This document shows, piece after piece, positions 1-6,160 of a DNA stretch of 6,478 bases; positions within the stretch are counted from its first letter, which is position 1, and the number at the start of each line of letters is the position of its first letter. The notes below the pieces were generated by a model. That model did not search any database and had not been told where the DNA came from. It was given only the letters and a program-made list of their open reading frames with translations. Both the position numbers and the translations under genes were made by a program. This DNA is from a virus (Duplodnaviria > Heunggongvirae > Uroviricota > Caudoviricetes), in IMG/VR virus record IMGVR_UViG_2534681912_000008; one strand, written 5' to 3'.

Positions 1-258
1 CGGGCTGTGGCGCTTATTGTTCGCCAGCAGCGGCTGAAATTAAGCCTGTCCGGAAGGCTGGCGATAAAGGTGATTGCAGAGCCACCGGATAAGCGCCGCC
101 GCGATCTGGACAATATCCTGAAGGCACCACTGGATGCGCTGACGCATGCCGGACTACTTATAGACGACGAGCAGTTTGATGAAATCAATATTGTGCGCGG
201 TCAGCTCGTTCCTGGTGGGCGGCTGGGGATAAAAATCACAGAACTGGAGTGCGCATGA
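1..258 (+). CDS. rusA: Holliday junction resolvase RusA, C-terminal ~85 codons (5' end lies upstream of the window)
   Basis: Frame 1 is open from base 1 to the TGA at 256-258. The translation (...PDKRRRDLDNILKAPLDALTHAGLLIDDEQF...GGRLGIKITELE) aligns with the C-terminal half of E. coli RusA, including the RRRDLDN acidic catalytic motif. The Met at position 7 is internal, not the start. Confidence 0.85.
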   Translation, partial: RAVALIVRQQRLKLSLSGRLAIKVIAEPPDKRRRDLDNILKAPLDALTHAGLLIDDEQFDEINIVRGQLVPGGRLGIKITELECA

Positions 259-944
259 ATAACCAGTATTTACAGTTTGTGCGTGAGCAGCTCATTATCG
301 CCACCGCTGATTTGAGTGGGGCAACAAAAGGTCAGCTTGAAGCCTGGCAGGAGAATGCCATGTTCGATACAGGGCGTTACAGGCGTAAAAAAATCCGGTA
401 CCGCGATGAAGTGACCGGAAAAATGATAACGCGGGATAATCCACCAATCCCGGGAAAACAATCGCTGGCGAAGGGGACGTCAATTCCTCTGGTCAGTCAG
501 GTTGCTTTTTCTACATCATCATGGCGGCGGGCTGTTTTGTCTCTTGAAGAACATCATAAAGCCTGGTTGTTGTGGTGTTACAGCGGAAATACTTGCTGGG
601 AGTATCAGATCGCGATAACGCAGTGGGCATGGACAGAATTTAAGACTCACTCTGGTACCAGGAAAATTGCAGGGAAGACACAGGAACGCCTGAAAAAATT
701 AATCTGGCTGGCTGCACAGGATGTCAGGAGATGGGTTATAGGACATGATATCTACCAGCAACAGGAGCTTGCCCGTCTGTGTGGGATTAAGCCTGACAAC
801 TGGAGCCACAATTATGTGAGCTACTGGCGTGAAATACTCGACATTTTTATGAACCTCGATACCGAATCTCTGATTTGCACTGTGAAAAGGAGATCTCAAC
901 AAAAAGCGGCATTTTTGCAGCGAGATATTGCAAAAGTCAATTAG
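255..944 (+). CDS. Putative late-gene antitermination protein Q (assignment mainly positional)
   Basis: A ~230-codon ORF lies immediately after rusA, and its stop at 942-944 overlaps the -35 of a strong promoter followed by an intrinsic terminator, the canonical Q-PR'-tR' arrangement. Likely start is the ATG at 255 (GGAG at 246-249, ATGA overlap with the rusA stop); the ORF track begins at the GTG at 249. No Q family motif was recognised unambiguously. Confidence 0.5.
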   Translation: MNNQYLQFVREQLIIATADLSGATKGQLEAWQENAMFDTGRYRRKKIRYRDEVTGKMITRDNPPIPGKQSLAKGTSIPLVSQVAFSTSSWRRAVLSLEEHHKAWLLWCYSGNTCWEYQIAITQWAWTEFKTHSGTRKIAGKTQERLKKLIWLAAQDVRRWVIGHDIYQQQELARLCGIKPDNWSHNYVSYWREILDIFMNLDTESLICTVKRRSQQKAAFLQRDIAKVN

Positions 945-976
945 ATAGCATATATTTTATGTAAATGTGATATATT
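928..976 (+). promoter_or_regulatory. PR'-like sigma70 late promoter with a second -10-like element just downstream (putative promoter-proximal pause/qut region)
   Basis: -35 TTGCAA at 928-933, a 17-bp spacer, and -10 TATATT at 951-956. A second TGaTATATT (extended -10-like) at 968-976 falls just downstream of the predicted start site, as expected for a sigma-dependent pause element used for Q loading. Confidence 0.5.
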
Positions 977-993
977 GCTGTAAAGTGTATAAA

Positions 994-1017
994 CCCGCTC
1001 AAATGTGCGGGTTTTTT
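994..1017 (+). terminator. tR'-like rho-independent terminator
   Basis: CCCGC at 994-998 pairs with GCGGG at 1007-1011 around an 8-nt loop, followed by TTTTTT at 1012-1017. It lies about 50 nt downstream of the predicted PR' start. Confidence 0.7.
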
Positions 1018-1090
1018 GCTTAACTCTGTGGACCTTTTTATCTGTAGTTGTAATATATGGATATTGTTACAATTTAGGTCGGTGAGCTTA

Positions 1091-1855
1091 ATGGAAGAAC
1101 AGCACGGTAATTACTTTATAAAACGAATTCAGTTGATTGGAAGAGGGGCATTTGGCTTTGTTGAACACGTTAAGGTTTACAACCTCAATAAAGGTGAATG
1201 CGGGGATTATGCTAGAAAGGTTTTAGCACCCGAAAAACCAGAGCTTTTGGCGCAAATAGAGCAGTTTAGAAGGCGTTTTAAAAGGGAGGTTGTGTATCAA
1301 TCACATTGCGTACATAGCAATATTGTTCCTATTTATTTGTGCGATTTGTTTGTTGAGAATCCATGGTTCATTATGGATAAAGCAGAATGTGATCTTGAGC
1401 ACGAAATAACGAACAACCTTCTTACAACAGATCAAAAAATTTCAATAGTGAAAATGGTATTAGATGGTGTAGCTTACATCCATGCCAAAGGCTATTTACA
1501 CAGAGATATAAAACCCTTTAATGTTTTGCGATTTAGCGACGGAACATACAAGGTGTCTGATTTTGGTCTGGTAAAAGATACGAATCCCGAAGGGGATACC
1601 ACTAAATTGACCGAGATCGGTACCCGTATGGGAAGTACAAGATATATGGCTCCCGAGATTTTATATAATGCAGAGTATTCAGTTAAGACTGATGTTTATG
1701 CTGTGGGACGGTTAATTGAAGACTTAAATTTAGATGATAAAAAAATAAAGCCTATCATAGCTAAGTGCACAAGGATGGATAAAGATGATAGATATCAGAC
1801 AATAGATGATGTGGCGTTTGATTTTGCGCATTCTTTTTTAAGGAGTGAGTCATGA
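1091..1855 (+). CDS. Hanks-type (eukaryotic-like) Ser/Thr protein kinase, catalytic domain only
   Basis: ATG at 1091 is preceded by GGTGAG at 1081-1086. The ~254-aa product carries the kinase subdomain motifs in order: Gly-rich loop IGRGAFGFV, the conserved Lys in YARKV, a Glu in FKREV, catalytic loop HRDIKPFN (Ser/Thr type), DFG in VSDFGL and APE in YMAPE. No transmembrane or sensor domain is evident. The TTG at 1016 used by the ORF track lies inside the terminator and is rejected as a start. Confidence 0.85.
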   Translation: MEEQHGNYFIKRIQLIGRGAFGFVEHVKVYNLNKGECGDYARKVLAPEKPELLAQIEQFRRRFKREVVYQSHCVHSNIVPIYLCDLFVENPWFIMDKAECDLEHEITNNLLTTDQKISIVKMVLDGVAYIHAKGYLHRDIKPFNVLRFSDGTYKVSDFGLVKDTNPEGDTTKLTEIGTRMGSTRYMAPEILYNAEYSVKTDVYAVGRLIEDLNLDDKKIKPIIAKCTRMDKDDRYQTIDDVAFDFAHSFLRSES

Positions 1856-2595
1856 TTCAGCTGATAGCGACTTCATCATTCTCGTATCCAAAAGAACCAG
1901 GTAGGGTCAACGAAGATTCATTGCTTCCTCCAAAAATTGTAGGAGACGGCATCTTATTTGCCGTAGCTGATGGTGTAGGTTCATACTCTGGTGCCAGTTA
2001 TGCTTCATCCATGGCAATCGCTGAACTTTCAGCATTGACAAGTTTATCTTTTGATGCAGTTCCGAATGTATTTGCTGAAGTTAAGCGAAAAGTTATGTCG
2101 TTAGCTGAAGTTAATGATGAGTTCGATAAAGCTGCTACTACACTTACCTTTTGTTATGTTTGTGATAGCGGAATTATTATTGGTCATATTGGTGATTGTC
2201 GCTTGTATTGCATTGGAGAAAAGAAAGCATATCAATTGACGAAGGACGATACCAGACATCAGATGTTAATTGATCAGAATATTTTTAAACCCAGAGATTT
2301 GAAGAATAAACCGGGAAAAAATATCTTAACGACTGCCATAGCCTCAAATGTTGATATGGAATACGACTGTGATTTTATCCCGTGGAAAGATTTGCCTGGT
2401 ATTAACGGGTTGTATCATCTGTGTATCATGTCTGATGGAGTTCATAACGTTTGGGAAAAACGCCCCAGATTTACATCAAATACTATGAGTAATAGTCAGA
2501 AGTTTTCTAATGGTATTTTGCGTCGTATAGAGAGAGCCGGACCTGATGATGACTTTTCTTTAGTAAGTATAATGGTGCGTGTGACGTCAGATTAG
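1852..2595 (+). CDS. PP2C (PPM-family) Ser/Thr protein phosphatase
   Basis: The start ATG overlaps the kinase stop (ATGA at 1852-1855), with AGGAG at 1838-1842. Metal-binding PPM motifs are present: FAVADGVGS, HIGDCRLY, MSDGV and C-terminal DDDFSLV. Confidence 0.8.
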   Translation: MIQLIATSSFSYPKEPGRVNEDSLLPPKIVGDGILFAVADGVGSYSGASYASSMAIAELSALTSLSFDAVPNVFAEVKRKVMSLAEVNDEFDKAATTLTFCYVCDSGIIIGHIGDCRLYCIGEKKAYQLTKDDTRHQMLIDQNIFKPRDLKNKPGKNILTTAIASNVDMEYDCDFIPWKDLPGINGLYHLCIMSDGVHNVWEKRPRFTSNTMSNSQKFSNGILRRIERAGPDDDFSLVSIMVRVTSD

Positions 2596-2666
2596 TTGTA
2601 TAAACCCAGTAGGGAATGCTAATTTCCCATACTACAGAGTAAAGAAAAACTTAATTTTAATGTGAA

Positions 2667-2692
2667 AAGGCTGCTATCAGGCGGCCTTTTTA
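2667..2692 (+). terminator. Rho-independent terminator closing the kinase-phosphatase cassette
   Basis: GGCTGC at 2669-2674 pairs with GCGGCC at 2681-2686 (one G-U pair) around a 6-nt loop, followed by TTTTT at 2687-2691. Confidence 0.6.
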
Positions 2693-2705
2693 TGTCTGAA
2701 AAGCT

Positions 2706-3032
2706 GTGCAGTACGTTAAACACGCTTGTGGTTGTGAATGCCGACTGCGGCGGTATTTTGGCGTGACAGCGCAGGTGCCGTATACCGATGTCTGGACGCA
2801 TAAACCGGTGCAGTTCTATCCCGGGAAACATCCGTGCGAAAAACCGGCAGAAATGCTGCAGCAGATAATCAGCGCAAGCAGTCGTCCGGGAGACCTGGTT
2901 GCAGATTTTTTTATGGGCTCAGGTTCAACGGTAAAAGCGGCACTGGCGCTCGGGCGTCGTGCGATTGGCGTTGAACTGGAGACCGGACGTTTTGAGCAGA
3001 CAGTCAGGGAAGTTCAGGATTTAATCGTTTGA
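2706..3032 (+). pseudogene. 5'-truncated DNA methyltransferase remnant (N6-adenine/N4-cytosine MTase family, C-terminal AdoMet-binding part only)
   Basis: The translation HPCEKPAEMLQQIISASSRPGDLVADFFMGSGSTVKAALALGRRAIGVE matches the C-terminal HP..KP and D.F.GSG.T motif region of beta-class DNA MTases. Only ~44 codons lie upstream of it, with no DPPY-type catalytic motif. The ORF starts at a GTG directly after an in-frame stop, so the N-terminal domain is missing. Confidence 0.6.
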
Positions 3033-3081: not shown

Positions 3082-3157
3082 GGCCCTTTAGCTCAGTGGT
3101 GAGAGCGAGCGACTCATAATCGCCAGGTCGCTGGTTCAAATCCAGCAAGGGCCACCA
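3082..3157 (+). tRNA. ileZ: tRNA with CAT anticodon, most likely tRNA-Ile2 (lysidine type) rather than tRNA-Met
   Basis: Manual cloverleaf: acceptor GGCCCTT pairs with AAGGGCC; D arm GCTC/GAGC; anticodon loop CTCATAA with CAT at 3115-3117; T loop TTCAAAT; encoded CCA at 3155-3157. It is closely similar to E. coli ileX. The symbol is assigned by synteny with the Stx-phage ileZ-argN-argO cluster. Confidence 0.85.
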
Positions 3158-3164
3158 TCACATA

Positions 3165-3241
3165 CCGCCATTAGCTCATCAGGAAAGAGCGCCAGCCTTC
3201 GAAGCTGGTTGCGCGGAGTTCGGGTCCCCGAAGGCGGTCCA
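3165..3241 (+). tRNA. argN: tRNA-Arg (anticodon TCG), somewhat degenerate
   Basis: Perfect anticodon arm CCAGC-CTTCGAA-GCTGG with TCG at 3199-3201, D arm GCTC/GAGC and an encoded CCA at 3239-3241. The acceptor stem has an A-A mismatch, the T stem an A-C mismatch, and the T loop TTCGGGT has G where the invariant A58 is expected. Confidence 0.6.
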
Positions 3242-3254
3242 TTATCTGTATCCT

Positions 3255-3331
3255 GCGTTGTTAGCTCAGCCGGACAGAGCAATTGCCTTCTAAGCAATCG
3301 GTCACTGGTTCGAATCCAGTACAACGCGCCA
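3255..3331 (+). tRNA. argO: tRNA-Arg (anticodon TCT, decodes AGA/AGG)
   Basis: Canonical cloverleaf: acceptor GCGTTGT pairs with ACAACGC; anticodon arm ATTGC-CTTCTAA-GCAAT; T arm ACTGG-TTCGAAT-CCAGT; discriminator G and encoded CCA at 3329-3331. Confidence 0.9.
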
Positions 3332-3370: not shown

Positions 3371-3590
3371 AAATGTCTCACAATTCAGGCGGTTGACTGT
3401 TGTCTGGTTTGCGGGGAGTTTGTTAAAAGAAACTGGCATGGTGAATCCCCCTGTGCGGAGGGGCAATCAGCGAGTAGGTATATGGGATAATCGCGGATTC
3501 AGGTGCTGGTACTGAATTCACCGGGAGGCACCCGGCACCATGCAATGGCACATAGCGCCACTCTCCAGCCCCTCTCCGGAGGGGCTTTTC
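3371..3590 (+). repeat. Direct-repeat unit A (diverged paralogue of unit B), non-coding, ends in an intrinsic terminator
   Basis: Shares collinear blocks with 3832-4078: CTCACAATTCAG, GTTGAC, TTTGTTAAAA, GCATGGTGAATCCCCCTG.GCGGAGGGGC, TCACCGGGAGGCACCCGGCACCATG and AGCCCCTCTCCGGAGGGGCTTT. The segments between the blocks are divergent or differ by indels. Confidence 0.7.
3568..3590 (+). terminator. Rho-independent terminator at the end of repeat unit A
   Basis: GCCCCTC at 3568-3574 pairs perfectly with GAGGGGC at 3579-3585 around a TCCG loop, followed by TTTT. Confidence 0.65.
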
Positions 3591-3779
3591 TGTGCCGGAT
3601 ACATCACAGTTTCTGGAACCTTAGGTACTACAGTATCAGTCAGGGTGCTATATTTTCAGATGTGATGAAAGCCTGTCAGCAGGCAGGGCGTATCGGAAAT
3701 GACCCAGTAGAGAAAACGTTGACTCAGATACCGGTGCTGAGTTACCGGGAAACCGGCATCACATGACCGCTATCCTTCC

Positions 3780-3831: not shown

Positions 3832-4078
3832 AAATGCTATGTTGCTCACAATTCAGTAAGTTGACAGTTGCCTGTCAGACTGGGCATTTGTTAAAAAAAT
3901 TTCGCATGGTGAATCCCCCTGAGCGGAGGGGCGACTGGTGACGGTATAATCTCTGATTATCAAAACGAGAATGACGCGGGTTTAGTGGCACCGGGCTGAA
4001 CTCACCGGGAGGCACCCGGCACCATGTGCATGATGATACAGATACGCGGCTTTAGCCCCTCTCCGGAGGGGCTTTCTT
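3832..4078 (+). repeat. Direct-repeat unit B (diverged paralogue of unit A), non-coding, ends in an intrinsic terminator
   Basis: Same ordered conserved blocks as unit A, with a perfect TTGACA at 3860-3865 and a perfect TATAAT at 3945-3950. It carries about 25 extra nt in the central divergent segment. Confidence 0.7.
4055..4078 (+). terminator. Rho-independent terminator at the end of repeat unit B
   Basis: GCCCCTC at 4055-4061 pairs with GAGGGGC at 4066-4072 around a TCCG loop, followed by a T-rich run (TTTCTTAT). Confidence 0.6.
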
Positions 4079-4084
4079 ATGGAC

Positions 4085-4113
4085 AAAAAAAGCCCGCGCT
4101 GGGAGACGCGGGC
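4085..4113 (-). terminator. Candidate minus-strand rho-independent terminator, convergent with the unit B terminator
   Basis: GCCCGCG at 4092-4098 pairs with CGCGGGC at 4107-4113 around an 8-nt loop. The A7 run at 4085-4091 on the + strand becomes a U-tract after the hairpin on the minus strand. Confidence 0.45.
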
Positions 4114-4182
4114 GGCAAGGAATAAACAATAAAACGTGAAGTAATATTTCAGCTGGCGAATAATACCCCATAGTAATCACTC

Positions 4183-4204
4183 TGCGCAACTGCGCGGTCT
4201 TTTT
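4183..4204 (+). terminator. Candidate weak intrinsic terminator upstream of nanS-p
   Basis: TGCGC at 4183-4187 pairs with GCGCG at 4192-4196 around a 4-nt loop, followed by a T-rich run at 4198-4204. Confidence 0.35.
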
Positions 4205-4306
4205 CGAATTGCGGGCTGTAGTCTCCCTTCTGCCATTGTCCTGTAACTTCCGGACTTCAGCCTGCTCCTTATCTGACTCACAACATTATCCCGCCCGGGA
4301 GGATTC

Positions 4307-6160
4307 ATGGCATTTAAACACTATGACGTGGTCAGGGCGGCATCGCCGTCAGACCTTGCGAAACGACTGACACAAAAACTGAAGGAGGGCTGGCAGCCGT
4401 TTGGTAGTCCGGTGGCCATAACCCCTTATACCCTGATGCAGGCGATTGCAGCAGAAGGTGATGTGGTCGTCAGTGGTGCAACTGAGCCGGAGTGGTACTA
4501 CGTCATCGTACTGGCCGGGCAATCCAATGCCATGGCTTACGGTGAAGGGCTTCCGCTTCCGGATTCATACGATGCGCCCCATCCGCGCATTAAGCAACTG
4601 GCCCGTCGTAACACAGTGACTCCCGGTGGTGAAGTATGCGTATTTAACGACATCATTCCTGCTGACCATTGTCTGCATGATGTTCAGGATATGAGTACGA
4701 TTAACCATCCCCGGGCTGACCTGAGCAAAGGGCAGTACGGCTGTGTCGGACAGGGCTTACATATTGCCAAAAAACTGCTTCCGTATATCCCTAATAATGC
4801 GGGGATCCTGCTGGTACCATGCTGTCGTGGTGGTTCGGCATTCACCCAGGGCACGGAGGGGACATTCAGCGAGTCCACGGGAGCCAGTCAGGATTCGGCT
4901 CGCTGGGGAGTGGGTAAGCCGTTATATCAGGATCTGCTTTTCCGCACGAAGGCAGCATTGCAGAAAAACCCGAAAAACGTTTTGCTGGCGATATGCTGGA
5001 TGCAGGGGGAATTCGATATGACGAATGCCAGTTACGCCCAGCAGCCAGCAGCATTTCTTGCAATGGTACAGCAGTTCCGTGCTGACCTTGCCGGGCTGGC
5101 AGCGCAGTGTCACGGTGGAAGTCCGGCATCAGTCCCCTGGATTTGTGGCGACACGACATACGCGTGGAAACAAGAACACGGTACGCAATATGAAGTGGTA
5201 TATGGTGCATATAAAGGTAAAGAATCCCAGCAGATTTATTTTGTTCCCTTTATGACCGATGGTAGCGGAGTTAATACACCGACAAACAACCCGTCAGAAG
5301 ATCCTGATATTGTCGGGTCTGGTTATTACGGTTCGGCATCCCGAACGAACAAAAACTGGGTATCATCAAATCGCCCGACGCATTTCAGCTCATGGGCGCG
5401 TCGTGGCATTATTCCCGATCGTATGGCAACTGCTATTCTGAACGTAGCCGGTCGCACCTTAGCCTTCATTAGTGGTAAGGCACCGGAAATCAAACTCTCG
5501 CCCGGCGGCGACACGCCATCGGGGCCGTCTGAAGATGCATCCATACGCACAATCTCCCTGTTGCCGACAGCCGGAGACGCTGCTGCGCAGGGCTGGAGCA
5601 TTAAGAATGGCGGAATTCAGTTGTCAGATGGTGTATTTAAGATCACCAAGCAGAGCAATAAAGCCTGGTCCCTGACGCGCCCGGTGGATGACGCAGTCTC
5701 CCTGCTGACACGGGGTGGCAGACTGAGCTGTAAGTTTCGACTGTCAGGCGCACTGACCAACAATCAGTTCGGTCTGGGAATTTATCTGTATACCGATGTA
5801 GCGTTACCTGACGTCGTGGCGATGACCGGGACTGGTAACCCGTTCCTGATGTCGTTCTTCACCCAGACCACAGACGGCAAACTGAATCTGATGCATCACA
5901 AGAAAGCAGGAAACACAAAGTTGGGCGAGTTCGGGAATTACAGTAACGACTGGCAGACGCTGGAGCTGGTGTTCACCGCCGGCAGTGCCACGGTTACTCC
6001 GAAACTGAATGGAGTGGCTGGCCCGGCATTCCAGGTCATAAAAGACAGTCTGACACTGGGGCTGAATGCGCTGACGCTGACGGATATTACCAAAAATGCA
6101 GCGTATGGCGTTGAGATAGAAAGTCTGGTGCTGGAGATAAATGCACCGGCATCATCATAA
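4307..6160 (+). CDS. nanS: Prophage-type sialate O-acetylesterase (NanS-p-like): N-terminal DUF1737-like region, SGNH/SASA esterase domain, C-terminal beta-rich domain
   Basis: A 617-codon ORF with GGAGG at 4298-4302 before the ATG. The N-terminus MAFKHYDVV... and the GQSN catalytic-serine motif in VLAGQSNAMAYGEG match the NanS-p esterases encoded downstream of stx in Stx phages, recalled from memory. It is the dominant long ORF; all overlapping ORFs are rejected. Confidence 0.85.
   Translation: MAFKHYDVVRAASPSDLAKRLTQKLKEGWQPFGSPVAITPYTLMQAIAAEGDVVVSGATEPEWYYVIVLAGQSNAMAYGEGLPLPDSYDAPHPRIKQLARRNTVTPGGEVCVFNDIIPADHCLHDVQDMSTINHPRADLSKGQYGCVGQGLHIAKKLLPYIPNNAGILLVPCCRGGSAFTQGTEGTFSESTGASQDSARWGVGKPLYQDLLFRTKAALQKNPKNVLLAICWMQGEFDMTNASYAQQPAAFLAMVQQFRADLAGLAAQCHGGSPASVPWICGDTTYAWKQEHGTQYEVVYGAYKGKESQQIYFVPFMTDGSGVNTPTNNPSEDPDIVGSGYYGSASRTNKNWVSSNRPTHFSSWARRGIIPDRMATAILNVAGRTLAFISGKAPEIKLSPGGDTPSGPSEDASIRTISLLPTAGDAAAQGWSIKNGGIQLSDGVFKITKQSNKAWSLTRPVDDAVSLLTRGGRLSCKFRLSGALTNNQFGLGIYLYTDVALPDVVAMTGTGNPFLMSFFTQTTDGKLNLMHHKKAGNTKLGEFGNYSNDWQTLELVFTAGSATVTPKLNGVAGPAFQVIKDSLTLGLNALTLTDITKNAAYGVEIESLVLEINAPASS

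Follow-up and report, generated by a model that had tools for sequence, protein, structure and literature searches.

The stretch of DNA analysed in this work (the window, 6478 bases, from the tailed-phage record IMGVR_UViG_2534681912_000008 of IMG/VR) carries a cassette of two genes, which code for a Ser/Thr protein kinase and a protein phosphatase of the PPM/PP2C type. The features of the window follow each other in the order 3' end of rusA, antiterminator gene Q, kinase gene, PP2C gene, remnant of a DNA methyltransferase gene, three tRNA genes, two copies of the small RNA STnc100 and a nanS-p-like gene. Positions 900-2760 are 100% identical to a lambdoid prophage of Escherichia coli ML35 and many other strains, where the integration site of the prophage adjoins ompW. 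An earlier note, made from the letters of the sequence, had described the pair as an acquired moron with all catalytic motifs of the two enzyme families. The results presented here bear out that description, and lead us to the tentative view that the pair serves the lysogen as a toxin/antitoxin-like module directed against competing phages.

The kinase and the phosphatase

The first gene (1091..1855, + strand) codes for a minimal, soluble Hanks-type RD Ser/Thr kinase of 254 amino acids, as judged from Pfam, PHROG, alignments and an AlphaFold2 model. Its start is the ATG at 1091, which is also used in RefSeq WP_000392435. The Shine-Dalgarno sequence is GGTGAG (1081..1086, +), kept as TCGGTGAG/TCGGTGGA in the E. 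coli alleles A and B, in the 93%-identical IMG/VR relative L104 and in L116. A TTG at 1016, which appears in the list of open reading frames (ORFs), was rejected as start codon on the basis of the Shine-Dalgarno position and the RefSeq entry. The protein matches Pfam Pkinase (PF00069) with E=2e-33 (cut-off 31.7 bits) and PHROG 2361 with 8.5e-98. Alignments of the two proteins were made with 26-42 homologues of 40-83% identity. In those of the kinase (26-39 homologues) residues G17/G19/G22, K43, E66, H137, R138, D139, K141, N144, D157, F158, G159 and E189 are invariant, and the subdomain XI arginine, R234, shows no exception among the 26 sequences of the smaller alignment and is kept in at least 90% of the 39 in the larger one. 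A near-invariant threonine, Thr174, lies between DFG and APE. The model (predicted local distance difference test, pLDDT, 89; predicted template modelling score, pTM, 0.86) shows the bilobal protein-kinase fold with the activation loop, residues 163-178, as its sole disordered part, and in Foldseek it is matched best by PknB/Stk1 of S. aureus and PknB of M. tuberculosis, at a TM-score of about 0.72. Neither a transmembrane segment (maximum Kyte-Doolittle 19-residue mean 1.06) nor any Pfam domain beyond the kinase domain was found in the 254 residues. We regard the protein as a Hanks-type Ser/Thr protein kinase with an intact catalytic site.

The second gene (1852..2595, +) codes for a PPM/PP2C Ser/Thr phosphatase of 247 amino acids (RefSeq WP_000615423; Pfam, NCBIfam, alignments and model). 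It scores 53 bits with Pfam PP2C_2 (E=3.9e-14, cut-off 24), and matches NCBIfam Stp1 with 2.2e-27 and its PHROG with 1.4e-64. Residues D22, D40-G41-x-G43, G114-D115, D195-G196 and D233-D234 are invariant among 27-42 homologues, and the invariant metal-coordinating aspartates and the DGxxG motif of PP2C enzymes (motifs 1, 2, 8 and 11) are present. The AlphaFold2 model (pLDDT 93, pTM 0.91) has the PP2C beta-sandwich fold and matches the structures of Stp1, PstP, S. agalactiae STP and tPphA with TM-scores of 0.74-0.78, the value for Stp1/PstP being 0.77. A transmembrane segment (maximum Kyte-Doolittle 19-residue mean 1.27) and further Pfam domains were not found in this protein either. The motifs named in the earlier note were thus all found, invariant in 26-42 homologues, the two folds are supported by profile and structure searches with confident models, and the statement that transmembrane and PASTA sensor domains are missing agrees with the hydropathy maxima and with the Pfam results.

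The match of the phosphatase to PHROG 5650 covers positions 273-520 of 565 columns, as if some family members were longer or fused. The idea of kinase-phosphatase fusions was dropped after an exhaustive profile search, in which the top family members were about 235-256 amino acids long and had no N-terminal kinase. One member of the PP2C family, with 371 amino acids, has a C-terminal extension.

The two reading frames overlap in the ATGA at 1852-1855, as had been noted before, and the PP2C gene is predicted to be translationally coupled to the kinase gene through this overlap. The ratio of nonsynonymous to synonymous substitution rates (dN/dS), calculated between the E. coli alleles and against the 93%-identical relative, was 0.03-0.04 for the kinase and 0.09-0.12 for the phosphatase, values (0.03-0.12) that indicate strong purifying selection on both genes.

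Boundaries of the cassette and its slot

The limits of the cargo were derived by aligning the window with two sibling prophages, those of E24377A and VTB97432v. The E24377A prophage holds an allele of the cassette 95% identical to that of the window; VTB97432v has a related Q (83.7% nucleotide identity) and no cassette. The three are alike through the end of Q, the candidate late promoter pR', a -10-like repeat and the terminator tR' up to GCTTAAC (1018-1024), then diverge, and rejoin at CAGTACGTTAAAC, window position 2709. The cassette delimited by this three-way alignment is 1025..2708 (+), 1684 bp long with 37.6% GC, and the previously proposed bounds, 1020-2692, lie within about 15 bases of it. 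The backbone resumes at 2709..2745 (+), a deletion junction follows at about 2746, and homology to 1741 genomes starts at about window 2713-2745. Calculated GC contents (0.376 for 1025-2708, 0.477 for the left flank and 0.523 for the right flank) agree with the AT-richness that had been noticed by eye.

In VTB97432v the same slot is filled by a PemK/MazF-family toxin gene, which has its own terminator (positions 5534-5935). No antitoxin is annotated in the 190 bases upstream of this gene, and PADLOC gave no match for it. The methylase/tRNA backbone was present in 1741 of 5426 complete E. coli genomes and the cassette in 50 of the 5426, with 30 carriers of allele A and 19 of allele B. The carriers include the enteroaggregative strain 55989, the enterotoxigenic strain E24377A, the avian pathogenic strain BEN2908, the bacteriuria strain VR50, and ML35. 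The cassette thus has the marks of a moron, i.e. patchy presence at the same backbone position, deviating base composition and a terminator of its own, and the view that it is an acquired moron in a variable slot is upheld by the MazF alternative and by the genome counts; neither its distribution nor its base composition is that of a core gene with constant GC content.

The Q gene (255..944, +) is of the 82/21 type (PF06323, Pfam E=5.6e-84; RefSeq coding sequence in ML35). As its 3' half is rare, the Q allele was suspected to be part of the cargo. This was ruled out because the cassette-free VTB97432v shares the end of Q as well as pR' and tR' with the window, and the alignment assigns Q to the phage backbone. 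In STEC388 (4289-6516) an IS1 element, situated 25 bases upstream of the start of the kinase gene, has taken the place of the whole early region including Q; the two genes of the cassette are nevertheless undamaged there, with protein identical to that of E24377A.

Promoters, terminators and leader

A consensus scan found a candidate late promoter, TTGCAA-17-TATATT, at 928..956 (+; 9 of 12 matches), overlapping the end of Q. By its position it would fit the architecture of a lambdoid pR'. A few bases downstream of the presumed start site lies a -10-like repeat, TGATATATT (968..976, +), whose core TTTGATAT is kept in the window, E24377A, L104 and phiES15. This repeat may be a sigma-70-dependent pause element for Q loading; we take it to be similar to the Q-loading pause sites of lambda and phage 82 pR'. 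The tR'-type intrinsic terminator, with a G+C stem of 8 bp and a T-run, occupies 991..1024 (+) together with the last shared backbone bases, ending with GCTTAAC, and is common to the window, E24377A and VTB97432v. Its hairpin (991-1014) has a folding energy of -14.7 kcal/mol (z=-4.5, none of 200 shuffles as good). The cassette's own intrinsic terminator is at 2660..2695 (+; -20.4 kcal/mol, z=-5.6, none of 200 shuffles as good). That the cassette starts right after tR' and ends in a terminator of its own, as proposed in the earlier note, was therefore found to be correct.

The leader of the cassette is 66 nt long. A standard promoter scan of this leader found no full -35/-10 promoter. There is an extended -10 candidate, TGTTACAAT, at 1065-1073, 17 nt before the kinase ATG; it is present in alleles A and B and degraded in L104. 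The earlier note had found no dedicated promoter and had deduced that expression depends on Q. This deduction is weakened by the extended -10 element and by the Q-free contexts of the pair, and favoured by the lack of conservation of the element in L104. Since the pair also sits where no Q exists, members of the family must be expressible alone. For this particular prophage the sequence is compatible with an own promoter, for which the extended -10 is the candidate, as well as with dependence on Q.

The right arm of a 10-bp inverted repeat (1047..1075, +) in the leader overlaps TGTTACAAT. The two alleles differ at two paired positions of this repeat (G-C in E24377A, U.G in the window) in a way that would preserve an RNA stem, an observation limited to two alleles. 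As a structured RNA the leader hairpin was rejected, its stability not being above that of shuffled sequences (z -0.6 and -1.1).

Distribution and genomic contexts of the family

Many homologues with the small size of the two proteins occur in Enterobacterales, Vibrio, Aeromonas, Pseudomonas, Pasteurellaceae, Xanthomonas and others, those of the two frequently sharing a contig. The PP2C proteins form a discrete clade: in the exhaustive profile search about 20 clusters (50% identity) scored above 195 bits, and 75 were found at E<=1e-30. The PP2C gene directly follows the kinase gene in 45 of 52 IMG/VR family loci, and the ATGA overlap is kept in 11 of the 14 loci examined. The GC content of the pair is 35-43% in every host and lies 3-20 points under that of the flanks (14/14 loci), even in Xanthomonas and Aeromonas, where the flanks have 62% and 54% GC, respectively.

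Directly behind Q the pair was found in E. coli prophages, Cronobacter phage phiES15, two Yersinia prophages (Q of PF03589) and a Raoultella-type prophage (PF06530); the Q genes that precede it thus belong to three unrelated families, PF06323, PF03589 and PF06530. The temperate Escherichia phage Flotzy and two Enterobacter prophages have it between Rz and the small terminase gene. In an Aeromonas prophage it is located between Q and the lysis genes, where its neighbours are a methylase, a type IV restriction enzyme and AbiEi/AbiEii; PADLOC confirmed AbiE and the type IV enzyme among them. Haemophilus and Ferrimonas carry the pair in the early or integrase-proximal part of a prophage, and in P. 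putida, Vibrio and Xanthomonas it was found outside any phage, in Xanthomonas beside a NACHT ATPase, for which PADLOC gave no match, and a SymE toxin. In the A. caviae prophage the interval from Q to the lysis genes (5454-13919) is a small island, in which the pair is accompanied by umuDC-like genes, a methylase gene together with a Com-like zinc-ribbon gene, an SRA-HNH type IV enzyme and AbiEi/AbiEii.

Of 39 non-redundant IMG/VR loci, five have the pair immediately behind Q, about 13-15 have it behind the lysis cassette or ahead of terS, and at least five have it beside a cI/S24 repressor, a typical place of exclusion genes that are expressed in the lysogen; 14 have no classification. About 20 of the 39 lie in the late transcription unit (after Q or between Rz and terS), always in late orientation. 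The post-Q position, which the earlier note took for the place of the cassette, is therefore one slot among several and, with 5/39 loci, not the commonest. Tai immunity genes have been reported to sit predominantly upstream of the phage packaging module, alongside other recognised immunity hotspots (PMC11364771).

When 50,697 phage records were searched by tblastn, two phages (three records) were found to carry the pair, both temperate lambdoid, and no virulent phage was among the carriers; all phage carriers that we examined are temperate. Megablast of the cassette against phage genomes gave no match, and relatives (Flotzy, phiES15) were found at the protein level only. Some IMG/VR loci show decay: two have a dead kinase with an intact PP2C, one has a dead PP2C with an intact kinase, and in one both are disrupted. 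The idea of using a toxin-first asymmetry of decay as a test of toxin/antitoxin function was dropped, the counts being too small and mixed.

Because the pair sits behind three unrelated Q families, in other slots and in non-phage islands, the cassette is best described as a horizontally mobile, autonomous two-gene moron of temperate phages, with no Q-specific function apparent from these contexts. The distribution thus characterises the pair as a promiscuous cargo module, for which the post-Q slot is one landing site. The two proteins are already generically annotated in RefSeq and PHROGs, and represent a functionally unexplored two-gene variant of the prophage kinase/phosphatase modules.

Comparison with known systems

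The closest characterised system is KKP, which consists of the phosphatase PfpC and the kinases PfkB and PfkA and is carried by Pf, P2, P4 and Mu-like prophages (PMC11341870; Guo et al., Nat Commun 2024). In KKP the kinases are the toxin and the phosphatase is the enzymatic antitoxin; the system provides anti-phage defence, with a phage protein inhibiting the phosphatase, and it controls Pf prophage production through phosphorylation of MvaU (PMC11341870). It is defined by three genes in the order P-K-K, with PfkA carrying a cold-shock domain and PfkB an FHA domain, both domains being required for toxicity (PMC11341870). The cassette shares with KKP that it is prophage-borne and mobile, that it combines a Hanks-type kinase with a PP2C in one operon, and that it is patchily distributed in Gammaproteobacteria including E. 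coli. It differs in that KKP has two kinases of about 300-430 amino acids with accessory domains, whereas here a single bare kinase of 254 amino acids precedes the phosphatase. With one kinase and PP2C, Q and a methylase remnant as flanks and no cold-shock or FHA domain in Pfam, membership in KKP was ruled out. Tblastn with either protein found no P2- or Pf-like phage among the 50,697 records.

In the PADLOC library the best matches of the kinase were mad6 (6e-40), PD-T4-6 (PDLC04047, 1.4e-34, positions 11-201 of 327) and Stk2 (1e-27, positions 160-348 of 500), and the PD-T4-6 match is explained by the generic kinase domain. Staphylococcal Stk2 and PD-T4-6 of E. coli are similar in using a Hanks-type kinase as abortive-infection effector, but they are single-gene systems with extra N- or C-terminal regions and without a dedicated coupled phosphatase. 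The partial Stk2 profile match and the coupled phosphatase gene rule out that the cassette is an Stk2 system.

The housekeeping pairs PstP/PknB and Stp1/Stk1 of Gram-positive bacteria have the same two folds and gave the best structural matches. PstP and Stp1 are known to reset the activation loop of the kinase. In contrast to the cassette, these are chromosomal core genes with the phosphatase gene first and with a membrane kinase carrying PASTA sensor domains, and the earlier note was right in setting the order kinase-phosphatase apart from housekeeping stp-stk operons. The cassette was not assigned to this group, as it has no transmembrane segment and no PASTA domain, and as its NCBIfam scores were far short of the equivalog level, at 103 against a cut-off of 450 and 96 against a cut-off of 230. 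A TerY-P triad was also ruled out, no TerY/vWA ORF being present in the window or in the ML35 prophage.

The 933W Stk kinase, to which the earlier note had likened the cassette, and T7 gp0.7 are likewise protein kinases encoded by phages, with effects on competing phages or on host defences. The likeness to 933W Stk is not one of descent: tblastn of the kinase against the 50,697 records gave 34 phage records at E<=1e-5, none of them a Shiga toxin (Stx) phage and none T7-like, and 933W Stk was discarded as a relative. The two phage kinases show no detectable sequence relationship to the cassette kinase, lack a partner phosphatase and occupy different genome positions, the immunity region in the case of 933W Stk and the early region in the case of the T7 kinase. 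With the morons found behind Q in lambdoid phages (stx and others) the cassette has in common the slot right after pR'-tR', a differing base composition, variable presence and an own terminator; it differs from them in being an enzyme pair that would act on intracellular phosphorylation, not a secreted toxin, and in using other slots, too.

Possible function of the cassette

We favour the reading that the cassette forms a toxin/antitoxin-like switch that relies on phosphorylation and would benefit the lysogen or the prophage by blocking competing phages through abortive infection or superinfection exclusion; we would put its probability at about 45%. The RD-type kinase would need phosphorylation of its activation loop, in which Thr174 is located between DFG and APE, and the coupled PP2C, made in fixed proportion to the kinase, would keep the kinase and its targets dephosphorylated. 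An incoming phage would upset this balance, either because it inhibits or titrates PP2C or because it stops the resupply of this enzyme, upon which the kinase would phosphorylate essential host or phage proteins, and phage production would stop. In the lysogen basal expression could come from leak-through at the terminator and/or from the candidate extended -10 promoter, and the placement behind pR'-tR' in this prophage would let the dosage rise sharply once Q acts. Gene content, catalytic sites, coupling, cargo bounds, mobility, purifying selection and contexts are established by the analysis, and the steps of the mechanism that go beyond gene content and context are proposals: we infer the toxicity of the kinase, the antagonism of the two enzymes, the trigger and the anti-phage effect.

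Several observations make us prefer this reading. The cassette has the anatomy of a moron, and its slot holds a MazF toxin gene instead in a sibling prophage; the pair is not tied to one position, and turns up in slots associated with immunity, next to repressors and next to genes of Abi and restriction systems; it is restricted to temperate elements; it is intact in the degraded prophages of STEC388 and ML35, and is under strong purifying selection; the order kinase-PP2C is kept in most loci, with a conserved ATGA overlap; finally, KKP provides a functional precedent, and the best PADLOC matches of the kinase are defence kinases. On the other side of the balance, these PADLOC matches cover the generic kinase domain only, and the phosphatase has no meaningful match in PADLOC, whose library has no model for it. 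The open-access papers and preprints that were searched contained nothing specific on the two-gene family or its RefSeq accessions and no experiment on it, and Pfam detected no sensor domain in either protein. Of about 55 contexts only a few had confirmed neighbours among defence genes, about half of those phage loci that could be classified are in a late operon in late-gene orientation, which fits a role in the lytic cycle equally well, the dedicated promoter is a candidate only and is not conserved in L104, and the decay pattern lacks the asymmetry, with the toxin lost first, that is expected of toxin/antitoxin pairs. All these points weigh against the favoured reading; on the whole the evidence tilts toward defence or exclusion.

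A narrower version can be formulated, according to which the cassette would be the prototype of a hitherto unrecognised, minimal two-gene anti-phage system, with the bare RD kinase as toxin and the PP2C as antitoxin, whose dose is gated by antitermination in prophages of this kind. Near-silent behind pR'-tR' in the lysogen, it would be turned on in trans by a Q of the same specificity from a superinfecting lambdoid phage, or by the prophage's own induction, and the cell would become poisoned for competitors just as a late-gene programme starts. We think that this version is quite improbable.

It is also conceivable that the pair acts late in the lytic cycle of its own phage. Driven by Q after induction, the kinase would reprogram or disarm host proteins for the benefit of the carrier phage, e.g. 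defence systems, nucleoid proteins or the translation/RNA machinery, and the phosphatase would limit the damage or erase host kinase signalling. The position of the cassette, 5 bases after tR' and co-oriented with the late genes, the constant late orientation of the roughly 20 of 39 IMG/VR loci found in the late unit, and the leader without a strong -35/-10 promoter all suit such a role, and there is a precedent in the T7 kinase, which phosphorylates host proteins broadly and disarms defences (PMC13645617). However, late expression would come too late against early-acting defences, the pair is also found next to cI repressors, in the early or integrase-proximal part of prophages and in islands that are not phages, and it was not seen in virulent phages of the 50,697-record collection; both genes are intact in the STEC388 prophage, which has no Q, and the own terminator is what morons carry. 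We consider a late effector rather unlikely. A role in regulating the lysogeny or induction of the own or of a co-resident prophage, through a host silencer or regulator (H-NS family, or proteins of the RecA/LexA pathway) whose phosphorylation state would be set by the balance of the two enzymes, appears less probable still. KKP controls Pf prophage production by phosphorylating MvaU (PMC11341870), and phosphorylation of H-NS is reported to control excision of prophage CP4So (PMC8034616). The AT-rich cassette is the kind of DNA that H-NS binds, and the carrier strains are polylysogens, to judge from the many lambdoid matches per genome. Against this stand the absence from Pfam results of a DNA- or RNA-binding domain or an FHA domain such as KKP needs, the lack of any sequence pointer to a specific target, positions typical of accessory cargo and not of regulatory cores, and the existence of non-phage occurrences.

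Least likely of all the readings considered here is that of a lysogenic-conversion factor, cargo like stx, which would influence the physiology of the bacterium or the animal host (stress tolerance, biofilm, virulence). By its position the slot is homologous to that of stx in Stx phages, the strains 55989, E24377A, BEN2908 and VR50 are among the carriers, and the PrpZ/PrkY/PrkX cluster of Salmonella Typhi was reportedly first described as a macrophage-survival factor. Yet neither protein has a secretion signal or a transmembrane segment, the laboratory strain ML35 and environmental isolates carry the pair as well, and the family reaches marine Vibrio, Ferrimonas and plant-associated Xanthomonas and Pseudomonas.

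Phosphorylation-based control of bacterial immunity and of toxin/antitoxin systems is a young field, represented by Stk2, the three-gene KKP and the T7 kinase. The kinase-PP2C family, which makes do with a single bare kinase domain and a single PP2C and lacks sensor and adaptor domains, would represent the simplest case. It is spread over temperate phages of many Gammaproteobacteria. As it is present in well-known E. coli strains (ML35, 55989, E24377A, BEN2908 and VR50), it is directly testable. If the defence reading is true, a compact system has been missed by current defence catalogues, and the question is raised how a domain-less kinase senses infection; if the pair is a late effector, temperate phages would have in it a counterpart of the T7 kinase with a built-in brake. 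Either way, the clean swap of the pair with a MazF-family toxin gene shows that lambdoid phages exchange conflict genes at the few bases after tR'.

Neighbouring features and the carrier prophage

The earlier note had the cassette abut a truncated methylase. The remnant was confirmed as a pseudogene (2745..3032, +), the 3' part of a gene for an N6/N4 DNA methyltransferase (it matches positions 134-219 of the 221 in the Pfam profile), but its truncation is not due to the cassette. E24377A, which has the cassette, and VTB97432v have a 198-nt ORF and a full-length methylase downstream, and in the window a deletion extends from about 2746 into the 3' part of the methylase gene. In HS13-1 (4033-4329) the same remnant is found behind a different, short Q and without the cassette, thus the truncation is a separate event, and the deletion circulates independently among lambdoid prophages.

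In the ML35 prophage the genes of the head protease and the major capsid protein (33122-34599) are annotated as truncated pseudogenes. The carrier prophage in ML35 is probably defective; the cassette in it is intact.

Two full-length copies of the Rfam sRNA STnc100 (3407-3597 and 3875-4084, +) scored 136 and 165 bits, respectively (gathering score 47). Their place, after the tRNA cluster and before the nanS-p-like sialate esterase gene, is the one in which Stx phages carry stx; the window has no stx genes. The tRNA cluster (3082..3331, +), with a CAT-anticodon tRNA, Arg-TCG and Arg-TCT, belongs to the downstream phage backbone. The CAT-anticodon tRNA (3082-3157) was called Met by ARAGORN; in RefSeq most genomes have it annotated as tRNA-Ile, and some as tRNA-Met. 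We presume that it is of the ileX/ileZ type, read after lysidine modification.

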